Both the position numbers and the translations under genes were made by a program. The notes under the pieces were generated by a model that was given only the letters and a program-made list of their open reading frames with translations, did no database searches and was not told where the DNA came from. A stretch of DNA of 63,962 nucleotides, the filler included, from Reclinomonas americana ATCC 50394 (taxonomy: Eukaryota), in NCBI GenBank assembly GCA_048213135.1. It is 7 parts of 3 records of this genome, joined end to end, with 100 filler letters (N's around TTAATTAATTAA, not from the genome) between each part and the next. Parts side by side here need not be neighbours in the genome. Positions count along the whole stretch, not along the records: positions 1 to 15,521 come from PS015346.1; 6 more parts are not named here. One strand, 5' to 3'. Shown one piece after another: positions 1 to 63,648 of the stretch (positions are counted from its first letter, which is position 1; every line of letters starts with the position of its first letter).

Positions 1-250
1 CCTCTTCTCCTCTCGTCTTCCTCGTCTCTTCCCTCGTCTCTCCCTCGTCCTCTCCTCGTCTCTCCCGTCTCTCCCTCTCTCCCTCTCTCCCGTCTCTCCC
101 GTCTCTCCCGTCTCTCCCCGTCTCTTCCCCGTCTCTTCCCCGTCTCTTCCCCGTCTCCTTCCCCGTCCTCCTTCCCCCTACTCCCTTCCCCGTCCCTTCC
201 CCCGTCCCTTCCCCCGTCCCTTCCCCCGTCCCTTCCCCCGTCCCTTCCTT
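1..250. repeat. Pyrimidine-rich degenerate tandem repeat (CCCGTCTCT / CCCCGTCCCTT units), intron interior
   Basis: Repeat units visible directly; followed by branch-like GCTCAC and CAG acceptor at 280-282. Confidence 0.85.
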
Positions 251-282
251 TCGCTCACTCTTTGCTGTCATTGTTATCGCAG

Positions 283-1918
283 CTATTCTCCGTCTCCAAG
301 CCGTTCTACTACGGCATCCTTCGCGGCCTGGGCTTGTGGGTGCCGGAGACGACACGTGTGCGCCTCTTCCTCTTCCTCACCCTGTTCCTGCTGATCTTTG
401 CGTGCTCCGGCAACATTGTCGGCATTATTCTCTTCAAGGAGAAGCAGTTTGAGAAGGTGAAGATGGGGCGTGCGCCAGTTCTCTGCGTGTACCTTGCTTC
501 TCACACCACCTTTGAGCAGTTTTACAACATTGTTCGTGTGGCATTCTTGTTTGCGTCGGTCTTTTTCGCCATCACGTATCTGCGTTGCGTTGGGGGGATT
601 CTGCGGTTCGTATGCGTGTCTCCTTGTCGTCTCATCGCTCATTTGCATGCCCAGCCTCGAAGAACTGGCGACGACTGATGCAGGAGGCGGTCTATTCCGG
701 TGCGTCGTCGTCCTTCAGCTTGCCTTCCCCTGACCTTGTGCTCACTTCTGCCTCTGCAGACATTGTAAAGACTCGAAGGCACCTCAACGCGTCTGTTATT
801 CTCGCCGTCGTGCTGCTGATCTTTGCTGTCGCCATTGACATGCCGGTGTGGATCTCGTACATGGAGGAGGAGGACATTTCCACGGTGTGGCTGGTGTGGC
901 TGACCATTACCGGGTGCGTTGTTCACGAGAACGCCTCTCTTTCCATCTGTTCCCATCATCGCTAACTCTCATTCCACTTGCCAGCCTCTTCTTCCACGTC
1001 TACATGGTGCGAAACGTCCTGCCACTGTTCTTGGATTTCTCTTTTTCCCCCTCCGCTCACCTTGCCGCTTGTCGCAGTCTGCTGGATCGGCCATTTTTGT
1101 GGCAGTGTGTCTGCTCAAAGTCCTCGAGTGGGACAAGATGAATGAGCGCATCGCCAAGCGGTCGGAGCATGAGTCTGAGGTGCGAGGAAAGAACGAGCTC
1201 CTGTCCCCCTCATATGCTGATCTCCTATACAGAAAACCATGATGGAACACAGTGCGCGCACTGCTGCGCTCAGTGACACCAACAAGAGGGTGGAGGTGTA
1301 TCTGGCTCTCAACTTTGTAGCCTCACTATCGCTCCTGGTCGTTGGTGCGTGTGGGAGAGAGAGCGACGAGAGGGGAAGAAACCTCACTGTCGTTTATTGC
1401 AGAGGTCTACGGCCTGGTGAGCGACTCGGCAAGTCATTTTGTGTGGTCCATGCGTTTTGCCCACACGCTGACGTTGACGATGCTGCCACTGTTGCGTGCA
1501 CCCCATCCGTCGCATCGACCGTCGTCAAGAACTCATCTTTTCTTGTCTCCCGCGAAAACAGGCTGGCCGCAGGCTATGTCACCGCGCGAGCCTCCAAGGT
1601 CAGTGCGTCATAGTGCTGTTCCGGGAGATACAGTATGCGCTCACTCTCTACTGCAGGGCCGCAAGATGATTGCCCGCATGCGTGCGCACGCCGAGACCGA
1701 GGACGGTCGGAAAGGCCTGCAAGACCTGCTGGTCTACTATATTGCCACCGACGCTGCCTTGCGTTTGGTACGTGTGGCCTCACATCACACTGCTCCCCAT
1801 CCTCCCCCTCACCCTCCCCGCACAGTTTGGCATGCGAATGGACTCGAGCTTCATCGCCAAGGTCGTGGTCATTGGATTCACCATCATCACATTTGTTTTG
1901 GCTCGTGCCTCTTCATGA
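283..1918 (+). CDS. Seven-transmembrane gustatory-receptor-like / DUF3537-like protein (7TM ion-channel superfamily), 5' end outside window
   Basis: Exons 283-456, 520-583, 655-699, 760-913, 985-1006, 1078-1179, 1233-1344, 1403-1490, 1562-1598, 1657-1767, 1826-1918 splice (all GT-AG) into one open 333-aa frame with 7 hydrophobic segments, N-terminal YYGILRGLGLW and C-terminal LQDLLVYYIATDAALRLFGMRMDSSFIAKVVVIGFTIITFVL. Confidence 0.75.
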
Positions 1919-1953: not shown

Positions 1954-4900
1954 CTATACACGTTGGCCGCTAAAGATAAGGAGAAGCGCAGACGCCAGCG
2001 CTAGAAGACTGGCAAATATCTGCAGGGAGAGGTGCCAGTGAGTCGAGAGCCAAACCTTTCCCACCCAACTCCCATCCCACAGTTCATCACTCACCCAGAA
2101 CTGCCTCTCGCGTTCCACCACGTATTGCCGGTGTGACTGACGCTCCTGCAACAAGCGCGTCTCCGTCTGCTTTACCACGCCAGCCACCTGATCCAACAAA
2201 TCGCAGTCGAGTGCCACACGCTGTGTACGGAACGCCTCGTCGACGGAACCCATTCGCTCACGAAGGCGGTCCAGGTCGTGACGCAGATGATCGCGCTCCT
2301 CACCGACGGCGGCGAGATTGCGGTCGACTTCTCCCTTGTCCGCAATCAGTTGAGCATGCTGTTGCTTCATATTATCAAACTGGCTGCGTGCTTCCCGTTG
2401 ACTAGCCTCCGCGTTCCGTTTGTCGCCTTCGAGACGTTCAACGTGCTTCTGTGCCTCACGGGCAGCAGCCTCCGCCTTGGCCACTTGATCCGCCAGCTGC
2501 CGTCTCAGGTCTTGCTCACTCGTCTGCAGAGTCGCGGCGGTGCGGAGATCACGATCCATCTGCTGCAGGCGTGCGTCGACACGCTCGAATTCTGCCTGCG
2601 CCTTCTCGGCGGTTTCACGCGCCGCGGCCAGTTCGGCCTCGAGTTCCCCGATACGTCGGTTGAGAGTTTCGACCTGCGCCGCCTCTAGTAGGACACGCTC
2701 GGCGCTCTCCAGGAGCTGCTTCTCGAGGGCCGCCACACGGGCCGCCATCTCCTCCAGCCGCCGAGCGTCCTCCTTCACCTTCCGCTCCGCCTCTGCATGC
2801 TGGCGGCTCGCCTTGCCAGCCGCAGCGTGTGCGTCGGCGTGTGCCTTGCGCAGCTGGTCGTTGAGCTCGTTGATCTGCTGCTCCAGCTCCGCGACATGCT
2901 TACGCTGCGCCTCGTCACCACTCGAATTCTTGATCGCTGACACGGCAGCCACCGTGGCTGTCTCGGTCAGGACGGCTGCAAATCGCTCCTGCTCCTTGGT
3001 CAGCTGGGCCATCGCCTCACGCACGCGGCTTTCGGCCTCCGCCTTGGCCGCCTCCACCTCCCGTTGCGCGCTGAGCACCTTTTGCTGAACCTCGAGCAAC
3101 TCCTCCGCATGCTGCTTGGTGAGCGACCGCACAGTGCTCTCCTTAAGTACGGTGGCCTCCTCCACCTGCTGTCGCAACACTTGAACCCGCTGGTGCTCGT
3201 CGGCAAAGTTGTTCTGCGCGTCGATGAGCTGGTTCTGAGCATCGGCCAGCTGCTCGGCGGCGCTGCTGGCCTTCTTCTGCGCCTCGGCGACTTGCTTGTG
3301 AGCGTCCTCCAGTTCATGGCGTGCGTGCCTCAAGTCGGCATCGACACGTTCGAGATCGCGCGCCGCCTGCGCCAGTTTGGTGCTGACCGTGTCAATCTCC
3401 GCCAGACGCGAGGTGCTGCCGGCCCTCAACACCACCAACTCCTCCCTGGCCTCGCGCAACTGCGAGTGCGCATCGGCCAACTCCGCCTGCGCCTGCTCTG
3501 ATGCGTGTGATGATGGCGCCGCTGGGGACGCGGTTGACGAAGATGATGATGATGACAGCTCGTCGACTTGCGACCTCAGCGCATTGACCTTGTCCTGTTC
3601 CTCCTGCAGTACATGCTGCAGGGCTTCCACTTGCGCAGCACGGGAAGCAATCTGACACACACGCGGACGGACGGTGAGATCAAGCGTAAGCAGAGCAACA
3701 AATAGGAGATGCACACCTCTCGCTTCAGTGCCTCCTCGCGCTCCTGGAACGCTGCCTCAGCCTCCGTCAACCGCTGCTCGCCCTCGCCTACTCGTCCCTC
3801 GGCTTGCTTGAGATCCGACTGCAGTTTCTCGCAGGCAGCCTTACTGCGAGCCAGCTGCTGCTCGACCTCAGCCAAGTGCCTTGACGTGTTGTCCTGCAAA
3901 CAAAAATGTCACACCCTTGCGCACGCCAACTGACATGACAACAACGCTCACCTTCTCCGCCTGTGCGTTGCGTGCCTGCTTCTCTGCGCGTTCCAGATGG
4001 GCGCTCTTGACGCGCAACTCGTCCGCTTGGTCCGCCTTCGACTTTTTCACCTGGTCCAGTTCGCCTTCCAGCTGCTTCACTCGCTGCTGCAACGCCTCCA
4101 GATCCTGCTTTCTGGTCGCCGCCTCCTCTACTCCCTTCGTCTCCGAGTCGATCTGCAGTTGCTGAAGTTTGCTAAACTTGTGCTGCTCCTCTGACAGCTT
4201 CCGTTGCAGCCGCTCCACAGTCGACGCATTGTCGGACTCCACCGAAGCCAGCGCACGACGTGCCTCCACCAGCTCACGCTCCCGCTGCTCCAGCAGCGCC
4301 GACAATTCCAAGTACTTTTTCATCGCCATCTCCAACGCCTCCGCCACTACGGACGGGTGGATCATCGGATTAGTAACAACACAACAAACGAGTTGGCTTC
4401 AGCAAGTCGCACCTTCAGCCGGCACGGGCTGGTCGTCGTCGGCATCCACCATAGCAGGTGCGGTGGACGCGCCATCACAATTACCATTCTGCAGTGTGGT
4501 ATCTGTGTTCGCGAAAGATGAGCGGGCGGCGAGACGCATACTCTTGCCAAGCAATGGCACGCAACTCATCGAATCGCAAACATGATCTGCGACACAACTG
4601 TGTGAGCAGCTGCGACAATGTAACACCGAGCAACACGAGCACTCACCAACGATACGAGTGCCCAACATGGCGGAAACGTGATCCACACTTGACTGCATGT
4701 CGGACACCAGCGATTTCGGTGATGAAGGTGGCGATCTGGCACTGTCGTCAACTGCTGCTGCTGCAGAGCGAGATTCAGGAGACGCAGCGGACGCTGCGGC
4801 AGAAGCGCTCGAAGCCTTGCGTCGGTGAGCCTCGGAGACTCGCGACATGTCTTGCAGCAGTGCTGTGGCCTGTTGATATCCGGCCGACACCTGCTGTTCC

Positions 4901-6920
4901 ATCGACTGCAGGCGGCTGCGTGCGTCCTTCAGTGCCGACTGACTGGCTTCCAGCTCGCGCTCCAACTCTCGTATGCGCCCGACTGCCACCTCGGGCGTCA
5001 ATGGTGTGCCCTTGCTGTCGGATCCGGAAAACAGCTGCCGATGCACAATCAGGTTATTGACTTGTGCGTTGCGTTGGGAAGAACGAACACAGTCACGCAC
5101 CACATTCGTCGACTTGATAGGAGTTCGGAACTCATCCTGCGTCACACACACATGCACACACATATGAGCAACTCGAAGACACGCGAACACCGAGAGAGAT
5201 ACAAACGCACCGGGAAGAGACTGGATCCAGACTGAGAACTAGCGTATGCAACGCGCTGCTCACTGAGATCTTGCTCGGGGCTGGACACTTGCGACACATC
5301 GTGCGTGTGCTTTTGCAACAGCTTGTCGACGGTCGAGGAGATCTTGTCGATGCGCCTGCACGAAGATCACCGGTGAGAGGTGAGCCGAACCACTGGCAAA
5401 CGGGGATTTTGCACAGTGACGAAACGCAAGAGGTGACGACGGCAGTGGAACCACGTCGGTCAACTTGGTCACTTGGAGCAGCTTGGTGAACTTGTGGCAC
5501 AGTTTGTCCATTCGCGCAAGCAACTGCGACGAATCGTCAGCGGGCAGTCGTACAAAATGTGACGCGACACGACAAGTACTCACCCGCTCCGAGTCGGCAT
5601 CCAGCACGGACGACGACGACGAGCCCGGGGTGCCGATCGACCCGTCGAGATCCGTCACCTCCAGACCGCGACTGGACGAGTGCAAGCTGCTGTCATCGTC
5701 GGCCACAGATGTGGCCGACGACTGTGCCAGAGGCATCTCCTGGAAGTTGCTGCCGCTGCCGGGACCCCAAGTCAAATCGACAACCTCGTCCACTGCCAAT
5801 TGTGCGTGCAGCGTCTCGCGAGGGTCCATGTTCAATGCCGAATAGTCGTACATCGAAGACTGGTGCGCGTGGTGCGCAGCACCCTGCTCATCACTCGATA
5901 TGTTGAGCCACGAGAGTGATGACACACAAACACAGTGGGACACGCACAATCATCGTCATGCTTCGTGTCAGATCCGAATTCGTTTTGGTCAACTGGGCAA
6001 TTTTCTGAGATGCAGCCTCCAGCTTCTGCTGAAGACCCTCCACCACCGATTGCATCACCTCCTGCGACCCAATCTCTGTCATCTGCGATCGCTCCGTGTA
6101 CGCGGTCAGGCCGGCAACATCGGCCACCTCCTCCTGCACCCATCCATCGGCACTCCTCCCCAGCTCAGCGCTCAGCATCTGGAATTTGCTGTACAGCGAA
6201 TCCAGATCACGATCGAAACGTGAAATCGAGTGCGGCGTCCCCGGAATGCGCGGTGAGGAAGCGGTGCTGGGTGATTGCGGTGGTGTGGAGGGGAGCTGGG
6301 GGGAGAGGGAGAGGGAGCGGGAGAGGGGAGAGGGGGGAAGGGAGAGGGAGAGGCAGAGGGACAGGGAAGAGGGAGAGGGAGAGGGAAGAGGGAAGAGGGA
6401 AGAGGGAAGAGGGAGAGGGAGAGGGAAAGGGAGAGGGAAAGGGAGAGGGAGAGGGAGAGGGAGAGGGGGAGAGAGAGACAGAGAGAGAGAGAGACAGCGA
6501 GAGAGAGACAGAGACAGAGAGAGATAGACAGAGAGAGAAAGGGAGAGGGAGAGGGAGAGGGAGAGGGAGAGGGAGGGAGGGAGGGAGGGAGAGGGACACA
6601 CACACACAGAGGGATGAAGAGGGAGAGGGAGAGAGGGAGCGATTCAGTCGAAATGAGAGACACACAGAGACGCGCGCGCGCAAGAGGCACACCTCGCTGG
6701 TCGGTGTGGATCCCATCCACGAAGGAGTCGACGATCGACTGGCCAGCTCCGACAGCGTCTCACGCAGTCTTGAGATATATTTCATCGCCTCCAGAATCTG
6801 CCCGAGACTGTTCTCCAACACGTGACCGAGACGAGTGCGCGGCGATCGACCATCGCTCAAACTCGCAGTGCTCACTCCGCGTGGCAGCGAGAGAGTGGGC
6901 ACAGTCGGCGGGCGACTCAT
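1954..6920 (-). CDS. Unknown long coiled-coil protein, paralog A, Ser/Thr-Pro-rich head and C-terminal transmembrane tail
   Basis: ATG 6920 (MSRPPTVPTLSL); about 12 exons joined by GT-AG introns (e.g. 6692-6296, 5947-5884, 5583-5524, 5425-5356, 4565-4503, 2094-2020); E/Q/A/L/R/K heptad-rich rod; ends QFWIFASLLALASALLLIFSGQRV*. Confidence 0.75.
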
Positions 6921-23656: not shown

Positions 23657-28962
<5,306 letters not shown>

Positions 28963-28985: not shown

Positions 28986-31900
28986 TCATTCTCCTGCCGC
29001 CGCTGTCGCGGTCTTTGCCGAGGGCGAGGACGGAGGCAGCAGCGCCACTGCTTCGGCCGTCCATGAACACTGGAATCCTCCACCCGGCTTCTCCACGTCG
29101 GCCAGCATGACATGGCCGAGCAGTGCGAGACCGCGTGGCTCCACTGTCTGCTGGAACACGATGCGATCGCGCGTGACACCGTCACTGGAAATCTGCAACG
29201 ACAGTCAAGGAGAAAAGTCAGGAGCAGCACGAGGCTAGAGAGAGAAAGGAGATTGCGCTCCAGTGACTCACAGTGTTGGCCGACTGCACTTCCAGTCGCA
29301 CCGACCACGCCGAGGCCGACTGGCTCCGCACAGCGTACGCCACAGAGGACGATTGTCTGTGCGGCAGCGAGGCATAAGGAAAGAGATAATCGACAGCAAA
29401 GACGACGGGCTGATCGCAACGGAAGTGACAGCTGCAACACGCGAATTTCGCCAGCACCGGCAGCGACGGGACTGCGCACCGGCGCACCAAAGCGCTCGAT
29501 GAGGCGCGCAAACGCATCGCTGCAACCCTGCGCGAATTCGTTGGGCGTGAGTCAGCGTGGCTCTCTTGGGGTTTTCTTACCCACAAACCTTGTTCCATCG
29601 CGAGTGCTCACGCAGCTCGTGCGGCGACTGCGAGTGTACAGACAGAACAATCGAGCGCGACGCCACGGACCTCAGGCCCGCGTCGTAACCGAGAGCATGG
29701 ATGCATCGCCAGGCAAAGCCCTGCACCATATGACGAGCACATGAGCAATCCGATCACGCACAACAACCTCCATCGAAAGCCTACCTCTCCCTGCTCGTGA
29801 ACCAGCCGGGTGAAATCTGTAATCGGGTCAGACTCTGCGACGGAACGTGATGGAAGCACGAGTGCACGCAACATTCCACCAACTCCAGGAACGTGAGGTG
29901 ACCAGGTTTCTGCAGTCCGTGACACTCCAAAACCGTTCGCTCCACCTCGTCCTTGGAGAGGCGCATGCCGAATCCAACTCGACACAGTTTCCGCAGCTCT
30001 GCGCACAACGGATAATGAGAATCCTGCCTCCAATATCAAACCCACTGCCACCATCACCTTCTCCATTCAGCAACTGGTCCATGTCACGGTCATACCTGTT
30101 GCAACGAAAACGGTCATTGACTTCCCTCGTTCGTTGCCACCCTCCTCGCCAACCAACTCACATGCAAAAGGCATCGCCCAGCAGCGAAAGCACATCGGCA
30201 CTCAGTCGACCGTCATTCTCCGTCAGGCTCGCACGCACATCCACAACGCCGGCACCCTCTGGCACTCGCAACAGGCAGCCCGACGTACTGCGTCGAATCA
30301 ATTCAGCGCAATTTCATGATCAACAAGCAGTCGTATGAATGTATGCATACTCAACATTGGGAACAAGGCATACTGCCCCGCCTCCAGGTCCATGCACACT
30401 TGCCACTGGCGACGCAGACCGACAAAACTGCGATGCTGGGAGGCCGCACGCTGCGCCACGACAATCTCCGACTCTCCACCGCTCGCAGAACCCGAAGCAG
30501 CGGCCTTGCGAATGATCACCAGGCCCAGATCCAGGCTGGCGCGCTGCAGTCGAGTACCACACCTTCTGTGGTCCTCCTGGTGCACTGTGACGATGACTCG
30601 ACCGGCACTCTGCAGTGTGAGGTCGTACGAGGGACCCGACACCGTGCCGTTGGCCTCGCGTGCAAACAGACCCTTGCGGCGCGACTCGTGCAAAGTGCTC
30701 TCCGTGCTGCGTGCAAGTCAGCGAAAGGCACAGCGTGCAAAACTTTCCACGTGAAGAACGACGCAACAAGAGCTCCAACACCGACGCAAAGTGCAACTGA
30801 AAGTCGACGAGCGACATGAGAATGTCACTTCTGGCAGTTGCGCCATAAAAGTCGAGCATGTCGCGATACTCGGGCGTCCAGGTGGCCGAGTGCTTGGACC
30901 AGTCGCCGCGCCTTGACGAGCGCACCAATCACATGAGCACTGGAGAAGGAGACATGATGAAAGCTCGCATACCATCGTTGCGTGGACTGAGCGGCCGAAA
31001 CGGAACGCAGTCGGACGAGTTTCGTGGAGGGTGGCACCTCAATCACATCCACGACGGCGTACGGTCGCTGCTGCACAAAGTTTGCGTGCTCCACCGGTGT
31101 CGGCCCTGCATACGTAGCAGTACACAGAGCAGAGACGTAAGCACACTCGCACATGCATTACCGCAGACACACTCGTGCGCACCTCGAGCAAAGGCAGCGA
31201 CCACACGACTGCACAACACCGCGTCCGTGAGAGCCTCCCACAGAGCGGTGCCGTCGCCGTCGACTGGTACCATGTGTTGCCGATACGGGGCACCAGTGAG
31301 GTCCATCAGAGTGTGATGCAGGCGGCCGCCGACAAAAAGCTGGATTTGGGGAAAGGAGGAAAAGAGAAAAGAGACGTAAGCCTGCGTGAGTGACAGGCAG
31401 AGTGCATCTGGATTGAGCTTGCACCTGCGAGTATGATCCCAGCAGCTTGGCCATGGCTTTCTCGACCAGCATTGGCCACAATGCACCAGAAACAGTTCGG
31501 CTGTGCATGGGCCCACCGCCTGCGGGTTTCACGTGCAATGAGTCACGAGCCAGCTCGATAAAGAAGACGGAAAAATAGGCACACCTTTGAAACATGGAAT
31601 CAGGTCGTCCACAACCACCGTGCACGGCTCGCCATCGCGGTACAGGCGTACGTGATAACAGCCACACTCCTGCAACGCTTGGTCCTCGCCGTTCACAAAC
31701 AGTCGCTGTACGAGAGCCGGGTGCAAGCTGAGCAACGAAAGCGAGTCCTGCAATCGTGGTGACTGAGTGAGCACTCCAATCTGCCACAGCACGACCGGGA
31801 GAGGGGACTCACATGCAACCAGCTGCATTCGACAAAAGACCCGATATCACAAAGTCAGAAGTACGCAGGCACATAGCGAACACGCACTTGACACGCACGA

Positions 31901-51256: not shown

Positions 51257-54200
51257 CAGATTCAACACCCTCATCGCCACCGGCACCAATGCACGTGAGG
51301 ACTTGGAGGCGGCGCTCGGCTTGCAGATGGGCAAGGCCACGAGCTCCGGCTTGTCGTCGCTGTTTGGGCGCATTCAGTTGCCGCCGGGATCCAAGCGCTA
51401 CCGCAAGATGGTTTGAGCAGTTGGAGATGCGAGACAGCCACAGACACTGCGTGATTCTCAACTATCTCTCATTCGCAGAACCACGAAGAAGTCTACTGCC
51501 CTGCCCCCGAAGTGATTCCCACTCGGCACGCGGAGTTGGTGCCCATTAGCAAACTGGATGACTTTGCACAGCGCGCTTTTCCGGTGAGTGCTTGCGCCCT
51601 GTGTTGTTGTTGTTGTCTTCTTCACACGCTCCCTTCTCACTTTTCCTTTCTTGCAAAAAACAGGGCGTGTCGGCTCTCAATCGCCTGCAATCGCGCGTCT
51701 TCGAGGCCGCCTACCGCTCCAACGAGAACCTGCTGATTTGCGCTCCCACCGGCGCCGGTAAAACCAACGTGGCCATGCTCACCATTCTCAACGAGGTGGG
51801 CCGCCATTTGCGGAACGGCATTCTGCGGAAAGGTGAGAACCTCACTGTTCTCTCAATCGCGTGCACAACTCTTACCTCTTTTTCGCAGATGAATTCAAGA
51901 TCGTGTACGTGGCACCGATGAAGGCACTGGCGGCTGAAATGGTCGGCAACTTTAGCAAGCGCCTGTCGCCACTGGGCGTGGCGGTGCGCGAATACACTGG
52001 CGATATGCAGTTGACGCGCAAGGAGGTCGCGGAGACGCAGATCCTGGTCACCACTCCGGAAAAGTGGGATGTGGTCACGCGCAAGAGTGGCGACGCATTG
52101 GTGCAAATGGTCAAGCTGCTCATCATCGACGAGGTGCACTTGCTGGCCGAAGATCGTGGCCCCGTGATTGAGGTGCTGGTGGCGCGCACGCTGCGACAAG
52201 TGGAGGCGACGCAGAGCATGGTGCGCATTGTCGGTCTGTCGGCCACGCTGCCGAACTATCAGGATGTGGCGCTATTCTTGAGGTGCGACTTTTGCTAATT
52301 GGAGAGTTGCGCATCCGTCGCTCATTTTTGCTGGTTGCACAGAGTCAACCCGCAAAAGGGTCTCTTCTACTTTGACTCGACATTCAGACCGGTGCCGCTG
52401 GCGCAGACGTTTGTTGGTGTGAACGAAAAGAATGTGCTCCGTCGGCAGCAGGTGATGAACGAAATCTGCTACGAAAAGGTGTGTGACGCTGCTGTCCTTT
52501 GTCTGCAGGTTTGTCGCGTCTCACATTTGTCGCAGGTGTTGGAGAGTGTCAAGGAGGGCTACCAGGTCATGGTGTTTGTGCACTCGCGCAAGGACACGGT
52601 GAAGACGGCGCGCGCTCTGATCGACATGATTGCCGACAAGGGAGATCGAGGTGAAATCGCTGTTTATGAGAGATCGCTCTTGCCTGTGCATCGTCTCATC
52701 GTTGTGTCTGTCACAGAATGGTTCAACTGCACTGAGCAAATCGAGACGTGGGTGCTGCGACGCATGGAGAAAGCTCGTTCGCCCGAAGTTCGGCAGTTGT
52801 TTGACCATGGCTTTGGCGTCCACAATGCCGGCCTGCTTCGTCAGGACCGCGACTTGACAGAGAAGCTGTTTATGCAGGGTGCCATCAAGGTACTCGAGCA
52901 GTCGGTGATGTCATGCGTTGCTGAATCTCAGTTGTGCGTCCCGTCACAGGTGCTGTGCACCACCGCCACTTTGGCGTGGGGCGTCAACTTGCCGGCCCAC
53001 ACGGTCATTATCAAGGGCACGCAGCTCTACAACGCCGAGCAAGGCAAGTTTGTCGACCTTGGCATGCTGGACGTGATGCAGATCTTTGGGTGCGCGCGTG
53101 TGTTGTTCACTCCTCCATCCTCTCTACGCTTTTGCTCAATCCGCTTGTGCAGTCGTGCCGGTCGACCGCAGTTCGACACGACAGGCGAAGCTGTGCTGCT
53201 CACCTCGCACGACAAGCTCGACCACTACCTCGGCATGCTGAGCGCGCAGATTCCGATTGAGAGTCAGTTCTCCAAGGGTGCGCTGATGCACCGCTCCTGG
53301 TTGTTCCTTCGCACACTTGCACTTATTCACTTTCGCGCGCAGCGCTGCCCGACCACCTGAATGCGGAAATCTCCCTCGGCACCGTCACCAATGTGCGCGA
53401 GGCCATCCAGTGGCTCTCCTACACCTACCTGTACATCCGCGCCATGAAGAACCCGATGGCGTACGGAATCACATACGAGGAGAAGGTCAGCACGACAAGG
53501 AAAGAAAGTCCCGCTTGTGCAGATTGACTGACCGCCTTGCAGAACCAAGATCGCTTCCTACACGAATTCCGTCAAAAGCTGATTCACGATGCAGCCAAAA
53601 CACTGGACCAGGCTCGCATGATTCGCTTCGACAAGCGAGTTGGCACACTGGCCGCCACCGATCTGGGACGAGTGGCAGCGCAGTACTATGTGCACCACGG
53701 CACGATTCGCATGTTGCGTGTGGGGAGATAGATCGATTTTTTTGCTGCTGCCATGCTTTTCTCACGCACGCGCAGGTGGACAACGGGCCTCACGCGCTTC
53801 ATGACGGACGAGGAGATTCTGAAGGTGGTCTCCACCAGTCAAGAGTTCGAGAACATGCAGGTTCGCGACGAAGAAATGGAGGAGCTGGACGAGCTGATGG
53901 CGCGCGCATGCCCCGTGCGTGTCGGCCACGGAGTGGAGAATCGCGAGGGCAAGACCAGTTGCGACGCGCAGGAGTCGCTGCTTCATTTCGCGCTGAATGC
54001 TCATCTGTTGCTTGTCGCAGATGTGCTGCTGCAGGCGTACATTTCACGCGCCCAAGTCAACTCGTTCTCGCTCGTGTCGGACTGCGCCTTTGTTACGCAG
54101 TCGGCTGGGCGGTGAGTCGTTCTCCAGCACCTGCTCTCGTAATCCCATCAGCTGACTCATTCACGTGCAGCATTCTGCGCGCTCTCTTTGAGATTGCTCT

Positions 54201-57200
54201 GCGTCGCGGATGGACGCTGATGACGTATCGCACGCTGACACTGTGCAAGGTCGCCGAGAAGCGCATTTGGGACTTTTTGCACCCGCTGCGGCAGTTCGAG
54301 GTGCTGCCCGAGTCCGTGTTGCACAAGCTCGAGTACAAGCGGGTGAGGCGGATGTGGACAGGCTTATCCAAGGTCTTCTTTTGCTTACACGCTTGCATTC
54401 CACAACGTAGGCCACCATTCAGGATCTGCGCGACATGAACGAGCACGAGATCGGTCACTTTGTGCAGAATCAGCGTTCCGCGTCCACCATTGTGCGCTGC
54501 GTACAGCAGTTCCCCGTGTTGAACTTGGAGGCCACTGTGCAACCCATTACGCGATCCATTTTGCGCATGCAAATTCGTGCGTCTCTCCCTTCACGCCTTT
54601 CTTTTGTCGTTCTCCAAATGACACCATTGTCGTCGTTGTCGCACAGGCATCACCAGCGACTTTGAGTGGAACGACCGCTACCACAGCTCCGCCGAACCGT
54701 GGTGGATTCTGGTGGAGGATCCCAACAGCGAGAACGGCGTGCTGCATCGCGAGTACTTTTTGCTGAACAAGTTGCGCGTGTGATTCGATGTGAACTCTGT
54801 CTTCCACCTTCATTCCTCAGCTGTGCGTGCAGGAAGGAGCGCCGGGATGAGCACAAGATGGAGTTCACACTTCCCATTCAGGAGCCGCTGCCGCCGCAGG
54901 TTTGCAGCATCCTTCCTAACTACTGTCTCTCTATTACTCACGGCCACATGCACACAGTACCTCATCCATGCCGTGAGCGAGCGCTGGCTGCACGCAGAAA
55001 CCGTGCTCCCGGTCTCCTTCCAGCACTTGATCCTGCCGCAGCGTCACGTGCCGCACTCGACGCTGCTGAAGCTGACGCCGCTGCCGGTGACGGCGTTGCA
55101 GAAGCGCGAGTACATTGAGCTGTACAAGTACGATCATTTCAACCCAATCCAGACGCAGGTGAGAATGGGGAGAAGAGGGGAAAGGAAGTGGGGGGAGATG
55201 GGGGAAGGGAAAGGTCATCGAAGAGAGAGAAGAAGGATGAACGAGAAAAGGAAGAAAGAAAGAAAGAATGAGAGAGAGAGAGAAAAAAGAAAGAAAGAAA
55301 GAGAGAGAGAGAATGAGAGAGAGTGAGGGAATGAGAAAGAAAGAGAAATGGGAGGAAGGGATAGGAGAAGGAAAGAGAGAGGAATAGAATGAGAAAAAAA
55401 GAGAAAGAGGAAGAAAGAAAGAAAGGATGAAAGAAGGAAAAGAGAGGGGAAGAAAGAAATAAAGAAATAGAGCAAGAAAGAAAGAAAGAGAATGAGAGGA
55501 AGGGATATGAGAAGGAAAGAGAGAAACGTAAAAGGACGGAAAGGAGAGTGTGACGAGGAATAGAGAGCAAGTGAGAAAGAGGCATAAGAGGAGAATGCAC
55601 TGAGCAGCAGCAAGTGCGTCTGTCTTGCGAACCCTAACTTTTCTGCCACTGACCGCAGATCTTCCACACACTGTTGCACACGAACCACAATGTGCTGCTG
55701 GGTGCACCGACGGGCTCCGGCAAAACCATTGCGGCCGAGTTCGCCATGTTCCGCGTGTTTAACGAATTCCCGAAGGGCAAGGTGGTCTACATTGGTCCGC
55801 TGAAGGCCCTGGTGCGTGAGCGAATGGAGGACTGGAAGCGCCGGTTCGGAAAGCAGCTCGGCAAGAAGGTGGTGGAGCTGACGGGCGACTTCACGCCAGG
55901 TATGGAGCGTTGATGACACACCTTTTTTTGTGTGGCCACTTAATTCACTCCGTATTCCCGCAGACATGCGTGCACTGCAGCAGGCCGACCTGGTGCTCAC
56001 CACTCCAGAAAAGTGGGACGGTATCAGTCGTAACTGGCAGAAGCGTGGCTACGTGCGTGACGTGCGTTTGATGATTTTCGACGAGATTCACTTGCTGGGC
56101 GGTGCGTGCGCGAGAGGGGCGATGTGGGGACGGTGGATTACGTTGATTTTCTGACTCTGTATGTTCGTGCAGGCGATCGTGGTCCGATTCTCGAAGTCGT
56201 TGCGTCAGTCGTTGTGCGATTTGCTGCTGGTGTTTGCCGGTCACCTCACCGCCCCTCTCTTTCTCCCACGCAGATCGTGTCCCGCATGCGGTACATTGCG
56301 TGGCACACGGGTCATGAGATCCGCTTCGTGGGTCTCTCCACGGCGCTGGCCAACGCGGTCGATTTGGCCGAGTGGCTCGGCATTCCGCGCCAGGGTCTCT
56401 TCAACTTCAAGCCCTCTGTGCGCCCGGTGCCTGTGGATGTTGCGTTTGTGTCGCATTAACCTGCGTCTTTTTCCTGCTTGCTCACCTCACCTCCTTTTTT
56501 TTGCCACACCACAGGTCCACATTCAAGGCTTCCCCGGCCGCCAGTACTGCCCGCGCATGGCCACGATGAACAAACCGACGTACACGGCCATCATGACGCA
56601 CTCTCCCGAAAAGTCGGTGCTGGTGTTTGTGTCGTCGCGTCGCCAGACTCGCCTCACGGCCATGGTGCGTGGTGGGTGATGCCTGTGCGAGGAGGCGAAA
56701 ACGTTTGTTGACTGTCTGTACAGGATCTGATTGCGTTGGCCTCGCACGACGAGCGACCGCGTGCCTTCCTCCGCTGCGACGAGGAGGAGATTGCACTGAT
56801 TTCCGAATCGGTGCGTGGATGACTGTCTGTGTGTGTGTGTGTGTGTGTTATCTTCTCCACAATGCTCATGCCACCATCTGTGCACAGGTCAAGGACAGCA
56901 ACTTGAAACACACGCTGCTGTTTGGCGTCGGTCTGCATCATGCCGGTCTCAATGAGCACGACAAGACGGTGAGTTGATTGGTGAAGGGAGGCAGTGACAA
57001 GCAAATGGTCAAGAAGATAGCAGGAACAGCGAGAGTGTGTTAGAAAGGAAGTGATGAAGAGGTCGATGGAAGGAAAGAAAGAAAGAAAGAAAGTAAGCGA
57101 GAAAAAAAGCGAGAGAAAAGCGAGAGAAAGCATGATGGAAAGTGAGTGAGGGCACGAGTGAGAGAAAGAGTGAGACAAGAAAACGTGAGAAATATGATAA

Positions 57201-59932
57201 GGACTCAGCGGAAGAGTGAGCAAGAGAGCAAGAGAGAGAGAGAGAGAGTGACAATGTAGGAGGTTAGAAAAGCAGGAGAGCAGGCAGAAAGGAGACAGTC
57301 AACCTGGGGAGTCAGACGAACTGTTTATGCTCCACACACTCTGTTGTCCATTCTCACCCCCTTTCCCTTCCCCTCCCTCGCAGATCGTGGAGAACCTCTT
57401 CGCCGACAACAAGATCCAAGTGCTTGTATCCACCTCGACACTGGCGTGGGGTGTCAACTTGCCTGCCCATCTGGTGGTAGTCAAGGGCACCGAGTACTTT
57501 GATGCCAAGACGTCGCGCTACGTCGACTACCCCATCACCGACGTGCTGCAAATGATTGGTCGTGCTGGTCGTCCGCAATTCGACACCGAAGCCGTGGCCG
57601 TCGTGTGCGTGCACGAACCGAAGCGCGACTACTACAAGAAGTTCCTCTACGATCCGTTCCCGGTGGAGAGCAGTCTCGCCGAATTCATTCACAATCACAT
57701 CAACGCCGAAATCGTGGCCGGCACGCTCAAGAGGTTAATTTTATTGTGTGTGTGCGAAGACCGTGTCGTCCTCCTTTTATCAACATTGTTGTTGTTGTTG
57801 TTGTGTGCGTGCAGCCGCCAAGACACGCTCGATTACATGACGTGGACGTATCTGTACCGGAGACTGCTGCAGAACCCGTCGTACTACGGGCTGGAGGACT
57901 CGTCGTTTGAGGCTGTGGAGGACTACTTGTGTTCGTTGATTGACCGCGTGTTGAAGGATCTCGCACGCGCGCAATGTGTCGGTGAGGCTTGCTTGTTAGA
58001 AAGAATCACACGCGCTGCTTGCTTGGTTCCTCATTCCTTCTCCCCCCTCGTGGCCAGACATTTCCGAGGACGAGAGTCTCGAATCGACCACGCTCGGCAA
58101 GTTGGCCGCCTACTACTACCTGGACTACAAGTCGGCGCGTCTCTACGCCGACCGTCTGCTGCCGATGTCGTCGCTGGAGGAGATTCTGGATACGCTGTGC
58201 GAATCCACCGAGTACGACGAGTTGCCGGTGCGCCACAACGAGGACAAGCTGAACATGGAGCTGAATGCGACTGTTGCGTGCACATTGTGGCGATCAGTAG
58301 TGTGTGTATGTTCTCATCGGTACTCTCCTGCAGGTGCCGCATCCGCTCAGCCGACGTGCCTTCGACTCGCCACACACCAAGACGCATCTGCTGTTGCAGG
58401 CGCACTTTTCGCGACTGCCTGTGCCGATTGCCGATTACATCTCCGACACCAAGTCGGTGTTGGATCAGTCGATTCGTTTGGTGCAAGCCATGGTCGATGT
58501 GGCGGCCGATCGTGGCCTCCTGAGCGTCGGTGCGTGTGTCATACAACGACTGTTCATTGCTGCAGACTAACGTGGTGTGTGGGCCGCAGCGCTGCGCATC
58601 ATGTCGATCATGCAAATGATCATGCAAGGCCGCTGGGTCACCGACTCACCGCTGCTGATGTTGCCACACGTCACGCAGCACACCATCGAAGTACTCTTTG
58701 AGAATGTGAGTCTGCGACTTTTGCTGGCGAGTCCGTCGCTCTGCCACTCACACGCGCTTGCATCCGGACAGAATGTGGAGGTGGTGCAACAGCTGCTGGC
58801 GCTGCCGCGCAACGACCGCTACGCCCTGCTGCGTGCCGCGCACGCCGAAGACGAGATTGTCGACGTGCGTTTCCCCCCTTGCCCCTCCATCTCCTTCGCC
58901 TCAACTGATTTCTTTATTGGTTGCAGATCGAGGCCGCGCTGGAACACATGCCAATCATCGACGTGCGACCGATGCTGTCCGTGCCACACGCGCAGCCGGG
59001 ACACACCGTGTCGGTCACTGTCGACCTTCATCGCCGCAGTCGCGCCTTCGGACGCTCCTACGCCCCGCGCTACCCGAAGAACAAGGAGGAGATGTGGTGG
59101 TTGGCGGTCGGCACCGACCTGTCGGACATGCAGGGACCTGGCACACTGTTTGCCCTCCGCCGCATCTCGTTCCGCGAGCACACCCAGGCCAAGTTGTCGT
59201 TCGAGGCGCCATCGCAACTCGGCCGCCAGCGACTGGCCGTGTACCTCATTTCCGACACGTATCTCGGCTTTGATCAGGTGCGTGAGTGAGAGAGCAGGCG
59301 CAATTGAGCGCGATTGTGCTCACATCGCCTCCTCCTCCCCCCGACACACAGGTGTGCCAACTGGAGCTGGATGTCAGCCTGAGCGCCCCATCGGCGGCGC
59401 GCGCCAACGCCAGCGCACCCGTCATGCTCGCGCCGTTCGTGCCCACCGCGCAGGAGATTGTCGAGCTGGAGGACCAGGATGTGGTCGAGCTGTTGAGTGG
59501 CCAATCGCGTGTCAAGTCATGGGCCGACGAGATCGACTCGGTCATGCCTCTGCTGCGCCACCTCAGCGTCGACAACGACGAAGGTCGGTCGAACAAACAA
59601 TCGATATCAATCATGCACGAGCTTGCTTGCTCATGTGCGTATGTACAGTCTCCGGCGACGCCAACTCGCCACCAGCAGGTGCCACAGCTCCTTCCGCTTC
59701 CGCAGCAGCTGCAGCAGCAGCAGGAGAAGGTGGCTCACTCTCACGTCGCGAACGCGTTCGACGTCGCCAAGAGGAACGTCGCCAACAGCAAGAGCAGCTG
59801 CTGCTCGAGCAGGCCCGACGTCTGCGCGAGCTGGCCATGCAGAGTGCCGACGACGATGCCGATGCAGCAACTACGGTCCGTTGCACGGTGACTGGCAGCG
59901 ATTGGAAGCACGGTGATGATGAGAGGGACTGA
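50335..59932 (+). CDS. ASCC3: Tandem-cassette Ski2-like helicase ASCC3/Slh1 (ribosome quality-control trigger)
   Basis: 35 introns; two helicase cassettes ([48 protein letters not shown]) each with a Sec63 domain; ASCC3-type second cassette ([39 protein letters not shown]). Confidence 0.95.
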
Positions 59933-62737: not shown

Positions 62738-62838
62738 NNNNNNNNNNNNNNNNNNNNNNNNNNNNNNNNNNNNNNNNNNNNTTAATTAATTAANNNNNNN
62801 NNNNNNNNNNNNNNNNNNNNNNNNNNNNNNNNNNNNNA

Positions 62839-63648
62839 CCTGCACAACGGGAGTGTCAGTGCCAAAAGCATCTCACAATTGCCACGAGGGGACACCCTCA
62901 CCGTGGTGGGGATCTTGCGCGCGAGATTCGCCGCCATGGCGTGCGTCTCGACACACGCAGTGGGCGCCTCGACCACAATCACGTGGAACGAGCGACGCGC
63001 GGACTCGGCAGCAAACAACAGGAAGCTCTCCACAATCTTCGAGGGTCCATACACCAAAATGTACTCGCTGCGTCCAAGAGAGAATGGGTAAGCCACAGGA
63101 CCACGCAGCTATTTGGGAATCATCGCTCTCACCTGTCGTGCACGTGCTCGGCGGCCTTCTTCTTGATCTCCACCGGCGCCGAATCAATCCTGTCAATCAA
63201 GTGGTTCACACTCTCAATCACCTCCTCCTTCAGCGCCCCAAACGGCAAGTCGTGTTTCCTCATGCTCGGCTGCGCCGACTCCTCCACATCTGCCGACAAG
63301 AACTGCAGCGGCGTGCGATCACTGGGCGCCGGAGTGGCCGGCGCAGAAATCGTCTGTGCACTGCTCCCGCTCTGCTCTCCAGCCTCGCCCATGAAGAACA
63401 GCACTCGCCGGCACACGTTGTGAATCGGCAGCACTGCGCGCGGTGGTCAGTCACGCGGCACGGGAGAGAGAGAGAGAGAGAGAAAAGGAGACAAACCATT
63501 CGGTCTTGCCGCCGCCAACGCCTGCCCAATGCTGCGCAGAATATCGAATACGGTTCCCGCGCGCAACTCGCCGCTTCGCGTGTCACTAATCACGCGTCGG
63601 AAGAGCGCCGCCGTGGCAAGGGCCGCCGGTCCAGATCCCGCAATCTTG
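62839..63648 (-). CDS. EIF2B2: Translation initiation factor eIF2B beta subunit (internal exons)
   Basis: KIAGSGPAALATAALFRRVI, LRSIGQALAAARPNVLPIHNVCRRVL, LKEEVIESVNHLID, AAEHVHDSEYILVYGPSKIVESFLLFAA..RSFHVIVVEA. Confidence 0.88.

Follow-up and report, generated by a model that had tools for sequence, protein, structure and literature searches.

Does the DNA at positions 283-1918 (+ strand) of a 63,962-nucleotide (nt) stretch from Reclinomonas americana ATCC 50394 (assembly GCA_048213135.1) encode a protist relative of the insect odorant and gustatory receptors? The whole stretch, filler included, is referred to here as the window; it joins seven parts of three records of this genome, and the locus lies in the first part, which comes from PS015346.1. 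A preliminary description of this DNA had placed the product in the superfamily of seven-transmembrane ion channels (7TMICs), whose members include the Or/Gr proteins of insects, the Grl proteins of animals, the GRLs of protists and the DUF3537 proteins of plants. As judged from its sequence, the product, at least 339 amino acids (aa) long, appears to be a very divergent member of this superfamily, a reading to which we give a probability of roughly 0.68. The proposed membership thus stands in part: it agrees with the predicted topology, a C-terminal block, an 'EH' pair, a 'VTA[RK]' string and an N-terminal motif, whereas the TM7 motif known from the family is absent and scans with pieces of the protein came back empty.

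An intron-dense gene at the window's edge

The spliced model at 283-1918 (+) consists of 11 exons and 10 introns, which together give one open frame of 339 codons closed by a TGA at 1916-1918. All ten introns are GT-AG introns of 53-71 nt, each contains a branch-like CTNAY element with its A positioned 12-28 nt before the 3' end, and their phases are, in order, 0, 0, 1, 2, 0, 0, 1, 2, 0, 0. The count of ten introns, the last two in phase 0, had already been given in the preliminary description and is borne out by this model, and the peptide strings quoted there are all encoded on the + strand at the places given for them. The exons measure 22-174 nt, which represents an extreme intron density. 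The features are as follows, with transmembrane segments (TM) numbered from the N-terminus, intracellular and extracellular loops abbreviated IL and EL, and codon scores given for the modelled frame and, after 'versus', for the other two frames.

1-248 (no strand assigned): tandem repeat rich in pyrimidines, with about 16-20 copies of an 11-12 nt unit, found with Tandem Repeats Finder
249-282 (+): 3' end of an upstream intron, with a branch-like CTCAC and, closing it, a CAG acceptor (AG at 281-282)
283-456 (+): exon 1 in the window, 58 codons, with the N-terminal 'R..GL..PE' element and TM1; codon score +35.1 versus -39.9 and -36.1
457-519 (+): intron 1, 63 nt, phase 0, GTGAAG..CAG; in-frame codon score +3.8
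520-609 (+): exon 2, 30 codons, TM2
610-662 (+): intron 2, 53 nt, phase 0, GTATGC..AAG
663-699 (+): exon 3, 37 nt, basic IL1
700-759 (+): intron 3, 60 nt, phase 1, GTGCGT..CAG
760-913 (+): exon 4, 154 nt, remainder of IL1, TM3, acidic EL2 and the start of TM4; codon score +24.5 versus -37.1 and -20.3
914-984 (+): intron 4, 71 nt, phase 2, GTGCGT..CAG
985-1006 (+): exon 5, a 22-nt micro-exon for the middle of the long TM4, needed for the frame; codon score +5.9 versus -4.0 and -7.0
1007-1077 (+): intron 5, 71 nt, phase 0, GTGCGA..CAG
1078-1179 (+): exon 6, 34 codons, end of TM4 and a charged extension into IL2, with no proline or glycine
1180-1232 (+): intron 6, 53 nt, phase 0, GTGCGA..CAG
1233-1344 (+): exon 7, 112 nt, second half of IL2 including 'EH', and most of TM5
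1345-1402 (+): intron 7, 58 nt, phase 1, GTGCGT..CAG
1403-1490 (+): exon 8, 88 nt, end of TM5, the 6-residue EL3 and TM6
1491-1561 (+): intron 8, 71 nt, phase 2, with the unusual donor GTTGCG
1562-1598 (+): exon 9, 37 nt, cytoplasmic end of TM6 including 'VTAR'
1599-1656 (+): intron 9, 58 nt, phase 0, GTCAGT..CAG
1657-1767 (+): exon 10, 37 codons, basic IL3 and an amphipathic helix (candidate TM7a); codon score +13.2
1768-1825 (+): intron 10, 58 nt, phase 0, GTACGT..CAG, just 5' of the 'FG' of the conserved block
1826-1918 (+): exon 11, 30 codons and TGA, 'FG...D.SF', the final membrane helix as candidate TM7b, and a tail of two residues; codon score +9.3

The reference for codon usage and splicing was a gene for an ASCC3-like helicase (Ski2/Brr2-type, with two Sec63 modules) at 51600-59300 (+) of the same window, which was found by its Pfam domains together with homologues and tblastn. 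This gene supplied the 1309 codons on which codon usage was trained, and the scoring was run on a variant of the model with intron 8 at 1496-1572, which differs from the adopted one by a few codons. The spliced coding sequence scores +127.6 bits in frame versus -191.6 and -150.9 in the other frames, or 0.379 bits per codon versus 0.433 for the helicase training set. The modelled frame is the best-scoring one in 11/11 exons, with a positive score in 10 of them, and the introns score between -25.2 and +3.8 over every frame. Moreover, intron sizes and donor types at the locus match those of the helicase gene, whose introns are mostly about 45-80 nt long, two being longer, and show the donors GTGCG[TCA], GTGAG[TG] and GTCAGC and CTNAY branches.

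The splice site that calls for the closest attention is the donor of intron 8. In the helicase gene, the same donor GTTGCG is validated by homology in the intron at 58273-58333 (+), where it stands in the context ACT/GTTGCGTGCAC (the slash marks the junction), a 13-nt context identical to that of intron 8. With this donor the helicase junction scores 445 against a homologue (P0002), and with the donor GTGCAC it scores 177 and contains four stops; both GTTGCG introns (1491-1561 and 58273-58333) have this alternative GTGCAC 5 nt downstream. Because of the donor validated in the same context, intron 8 was set at 1491-1561, and donor 1491 yields the string 'AAGYVT' and a more hydrophobic TM6. Four other versions were discarded: 1496/1561 shifts the frame and meets a premature stop; 1509/1561 and 1521/1561 are in frame, but put Pro/His-rich residues inside TM6; and 1496/1572, with donor GTGCAC and the second AG, is in frame but loses 'LAAG' and was set aside in favour of 1491/1561. 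Unspliced read-through of 1496-1656 was rejected on its codon score of -22.3. As regards intron 2, the frame is kept with the AAG acceptor at 662 but not with the CAG at 654, and an alternative donor at 616 rather than 610 would add two residues. Intron 1, being in frame with a mildly positive score, may be retained.

At the 5' side, no in-frame ATG was found upstream of exon 1 within the window. Since there is no such ATG, exon 1 opens at an acceptor and the window starts with a repeat, the first exon or exons are placed outside the window. The repeat at 1-248, upstream of exon 1, is non-coding (codon scores of 1-282 in the three frames are -39.6, -47.2 and -36.9) and probably part of an intron whose 5' end is beyond the window; it hides the 5' part of the gene and may mark a contig end.

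All of these observations bear on an alternative that concerns the gene itself, namely that the model is partly wrong, or that what lies here is a copy in decay or without expression, in which case the 339-aa product would not exist as modelled. The window holds no start codon, the GTTGCG donor of intron 8 is rare, and the AAG acceptor of intron 2 lies 8 nt past a CAG, all of which would fit such a view. The codon usage, however, is like that of a conserved gene, the frame preference extends to every exon, the GTTGCG donor is validated in the ASCC3-like gene and not one stop interrupts the 339 spliced codons, so that this alternative is regarded as very improbable. The locus is a real, intron-dense protein-coding gene, the 5' end of which is cut by the window edge.

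Predicted topology, motif blocks and the question of family

Three studies supply the background for the superfamily (PMC7746228, PMC9998090 and 10.1101/2023.08.30.555482). The protein was examined by the non-structural screening criteria, topology and loop lengths, used in PMC7746228 and PMC9998090. Kyte-Doolittle hydropathy gives seven hydrophobic segments, at residues 27-50, 62-86, 111-131, 143-175, 215-236, 243-266 and 318-337. The fourth is 33 residues long, and a long TM4 is described as being sometimes mis-predicted as two helices (PMC7746228, PMC9998090). Lysine and arginine residues are distributed very unevenly, with 27 on the predicted inner side (N-terminus 3, IL1 6, IL2 8, IL3 10) versus 3 on the outer side (EL1 3, and 0 in EL2, EL3 and the C-terminal tail), and EL2 is acidic. 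By the positive-inside rule, this ratio predicts an intracellular N-terminus and an extracellular C-terminus (N-in/C-out), the opposite of a G-protein-coupled receptor, and the charge bias strongly favours that orientation. The intracellular loops (24, 39 and 51 aa) are longer than the extracellular ones (11, 11 and 6 aa), and only two residues follow the last helix; the N-in seven-TM topology anticipated in the preliminary description is therefore recovered from segment number, charge and loop length alike.

Further details of the layout resemble the family. IL2 has neither proline nor glycine, which is consistent with helical extensions of TM4 and TM5, and the end of IL3 forms an amphipathic helix, followed by a short polar break and then by the last membrane helix, a layout like that of TM7a and TM7b. 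The window encodes 339 aa with the first exon or exons lying outside it, and the length of family members is about 350-500 aa.

For the comparison of motifs, the reference was the authors' own sequences and alignment in supplementary files 1 and 5 of PMC7746228, to which the protein was aligned and scored by hand. The last 44 residues align with VbraGRL5 of Vitrella without gaps, with 13/44 identical residues by hand count and with C-termini that coincide to within one residue; the BLOSUM62 raw score is about 63, or about 29-32 bits, uncorrected for hydrophobic composition. The same C-terminal block also fits gaplessly to Arabidopsis AT4G22270 (9/46 identical) and to TtraGRL5 (9/48 identical), again by hand count, and the positions in common are Q at -16, L at -14, Y at -11, [FY]G, D at +5, S at +7 and an aromatic residue at +8. 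A plant TM7 pattern of this kind had been given in the preliminary description, and it can be read in the published alignment (PMC7746228), where the Arabidopsis DUF3537 rows show 'ALVTY..(9 aa)..YGF.VDR' in the block that this protein fits.

Three other blocks show agreement. In IL2, 'EH' stands 19 residues before the alignment column of the TM5 start (16 before the start of TM5 as defined by hydropathy), the same spacing as in the plant, sea-urchin, Nematostella, Gr64a and Orco rows, and the published alignment shows this block ungapped. VbraGRL3-5 likewise have 'VTA[RK]' where TM6 ends, and a few residues before TM1, 'R..GL..P[ED]' resembles blocks of VbraGRL3, VbraGRL6 and TtraGRL2. Relaxed versions of the motifs were counted in 20,000 shuffles of the protein: the TM7 block never occurred, the N-terminal motif turned up 10 times and the TM6 motif did so 610 times. 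Nor was the relaxed TM7 block matched in stored proteins (233,124 residues) or in a six-frame translation (123,926 residues). These motifs were defined after the match had been seen, so that the rarity figures overstate significance.

Several results weigh against membership, the choice of motifs after the fact and the uncorrected scores of the hand alignments being two of them. The transmembrane prediction is Kyte-Doolittle hydropathy only, and TM6 is weak (mean 1.14). The TM7 motif (T/S)Yhhhhh(Q/K/E)(F/L/M) has 0 matches in the protein, either in its strict form or with Y replaced by F, and only a 'TF' is present, at 331-332. For animal GRLs it is the one signature recognised at the level of primary sequence, and it is described as diagnostic without being definitive; in plant members it can for the most part not be recognised, and fungal ones conserve only one of its four positions (PMC7746228).

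The searches, for which the queries were contiguous translations of the window (single exons and three in-frame read-through pieces), returned nothing informative. When 10 such pieces were compared with Pfam by hmmscan (E<=10), none of PF12056, PF08395 and PF02949 was matched, and the sole Pfam match of these pieces was an unrelated one at E=0.12. Neither phmmer with five pieces against PDB sequences at E<=10 (0 matches) nor a word-seeded search with an N-terminal piece (0 matches among 225 candidates) or a C-terminal piece (0 matches among 353 candidates) returned a relative. In the ESM Atlas, two read-through pieces gave no usable match, one having none at all and the other scores of at most 0.80. 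A search by tblastn for a paralogue within the window found none, the best off-target E-value being 2.9.

Two lone matches were dismissed. The first, P0001, was the only match when phmmer compared the first 109 residues with 1.84 billion representatives; it is a repetitive low-complexity protein and was considered spurious. The second, L001, was the only one of 589 metagenome pattern matches to pass tblastn, and at 695-766 it shows 67% identity over 24 residues to the 'RGLGL..P' element and the start of TM1, both being hydrophobic N-termini. It is a bacterial contig of 69% GC, and the match was put down to chance; its small membrane protein, which we take to be LrgA-like, is encoded downstream of a conserved-looking reading frame.

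The helicase, with a best database identity of 59-60% over the aligned part, has matches that are spread over amoebozoan, plant, kinetoplastid and stramenopile proteins; because it is at most 60% identical to any database protein, the host proteome is evidently absent from the searched collections, which hold no close sequenced relative either. In addition, most members of the 7TMIC superfamily are reported to be detected by structure alone and missed by sequence search, and a lack of sequence matches is the very pattern that the literature describes for this family (10.1101/2023.08.30.555482).

It could nevertheless be supposed that the product is an unrelated, lineage-specific orphan with an N-in seven-TM topology, whose likeness to GRL and DUF3537 proteins arose by chance or by convergence in hydrophobic, helix-forming sequence. 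Such a view would account for the failure of every sequence search of the pieces to find a relative, for the absence of the canonical TM7 motif, and for a similarity that consists of a hand alignment of about 29-32 bits, not corrected for composition, and of post hoc motifs; an N-in seven-TM topology, moreover, is shared by other families, among them adiponectin-type receptors, which served as negative controls in PMC9998090. What it explains poorly is that both the order and the spacing of four separate motif agreements are correct (one ahead of TM1, one 19 residues short of TM5, one where TM6 ends and one across TM7a/7b with coincident C-termini), and that the C-terminal block falls in one register with alveolate, apusomonad and plant members; 7TMIC members are, besides, known to escape sequence searches (10.1101/2023.08.30.555482). 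An unrelated orphan is therefore held to be unlikely, although it is the most serious competitor of membership in the 7TMIC superfamily.

Within the superfamily, the sequence features indicate that the protein is most likely of the Or/Gr/DUF3537-like type (Class-A) rather than PHTF-like, an IL1 of only 24 aa arguing against the PHTF-like class. The short IL3 (51 aa), in turn, sets it apart from plant DUF3537. By analogy with other members, we infer a possible role as a ligand-gated chemosensory channel. To our knowledge, no function is known for any protist member. If the solved Orco and Or structures are taken as a guide, the protein would form a tetramer held together by a cytoplasmic anchor domain made of the long TM4, TM5, TM6 and TM7a (PMC9998090). 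As in the solved insect receptors, TM7b would line a central cation pore, and the N-terminal half might form the ligand pocket.

A bolder proposal is that the gene is an orphan 7TMIC of a deep lineage that bridges the DUF3537 and GRL branches, and that its terminal phase-0 introns are perhaps homologous to those of animal Gr/Grl genes. The last two introns, both in phase 0, bracket the candidate TM7a exon, and animal Gr/Grl genes have conserved 3' phase-0 introns; intron positions are described as not conserved between kingdoms in this family (PMC7746228). The proposal is speculative, and we regard it as doubtful. Were it true, a bridging sequence would link branches that are hard to connect by sequence, and the conserved 3' phase-0 introns would date to an ancestral eukaryotic gene.

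GRLs were reported in a few protists in 2020 (PMC7746228); in 2023, 7TMICs were described by the thousand from unicellular eukaryotes as well as from bacteria and archaea (10.1101/2023.08.30.555482). As the family has already been described, the gain from the present locus is incremental, consisting of a sequence that may act as a bridge in alignments and of a member rich in introns with which to ask how old the 3' intron positions are. If its fold is confirmed, the protein would be one more very divergent 7TMIC, from a host without a close relative in public protein collections, and it would illustrate that raw DNA can yield genes of this sort despite exons of 22-174 nt, which are missed by callers that are based on open reading frames or designed in the prokaryotic style.

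The rest of the window

Downstream of the locus and convergent with it, a 600-codon open frame at 1954-3756 (-) without a Pfam match is rich in Ala, Glu, Gln, Arg and Leu and resembles a coiled coil. Only about 36 nt separate its end from the stop codon of the 7TMIC-like gene, which points to very tight packing of genes. At 6301-6596, a spike in GC- and AT-skew coincides with 48.7 copies of a (GGGAGA)n microsatellite.

Among the 19 long open frames scanned in the window, 17 lack a Pfam match. Exon-sized open frames with a match are found at 31532-31846 (-), with a calpain protease domain (E=2.5e-9), at 62785-63108 (-), with a weak match to the eIF2B family (E=1.4e-4), and at 28702-28959 (+), with a weak match to glycosyl hydrolase 14 (E=9.7e-4). 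As to the helicase gene, a variant genetic code had been considered on account of in-frame stops, and the idea was dropped, these stops being located in additional short introns.

Comparison with known systems

Among the closest known proteins are the protist GRLs, represented by VbraGRL3-6 of Vitrella brassicaformis and TtraGRL5/6 of Thecamonas trahens (Benton et al. 2020, eLife 9:e62507, PMC7746228), which likewise have seven TM segments. The length of TtraGRL4 and TtraGRL5 is similar to that of this protein, and in the C-terminal block that aligns with VbraGRL5 and TtraGRL5 the distance from [FY]G to the C-terminus is about the same, at 28-30 residues. In contrast, VbraGRL3-6 carry long N-terminal extensions and very long IL3 inserts, neither of which is present in the R. 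americana protein, and the ten tiny introns are a further difference on the side of this gene. Beyond the motif blocks, no similarity between the protist GRLs and this protein is detectable.

The PHTF-like (Class-B) 7TMICs have been proposed to share the same superfamily core fold (Himmel et al. 2023, 10.1101/2023.08.30.555482). According to the same work, they have a long first intracellular loop, whereas IL1 has 24 residues here.

With the plant DUF3537 proteins (PF12056), the likeness is centred on the block 'Q.L..Y..(9 aa)..[YF]G...D.S[WF][LI]' of AT4G22270, which fits this protein gaplessly, and it extends to the distance between 'EH' and TM5 and to the predicted N-in seven-TM architecture. 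The plant-invariant 'GIT' before [YF]G, D[RK] and the E at +16 are not kept, however, and the PF12056 profile matches none of the 10 pieces of this protein; its IL3 of 51 aa also differs from the long IL3 described for all DUF3537 proteins in PMC7746228.

The insect channels Orco, Or and Gr, for which Orco of Apocrypta bakeri (PDB 6C70) serves as the example, have the TM7 motif TY.....Q[FL], which is absent from this protein. In overall plan they nevertheless resemble what is predicted here, with an intracellular N-terminus, seven TM segments, a long TM4, IL2 and IL3 and a very short tail. The conserved His in IL2 of Orco lies 19 residues before the TM5 column, as it does here, and the amphipathic helix that precedes the last TM segment of the R. 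americana protein is a possible counterpart of TM7a in the insect channels.

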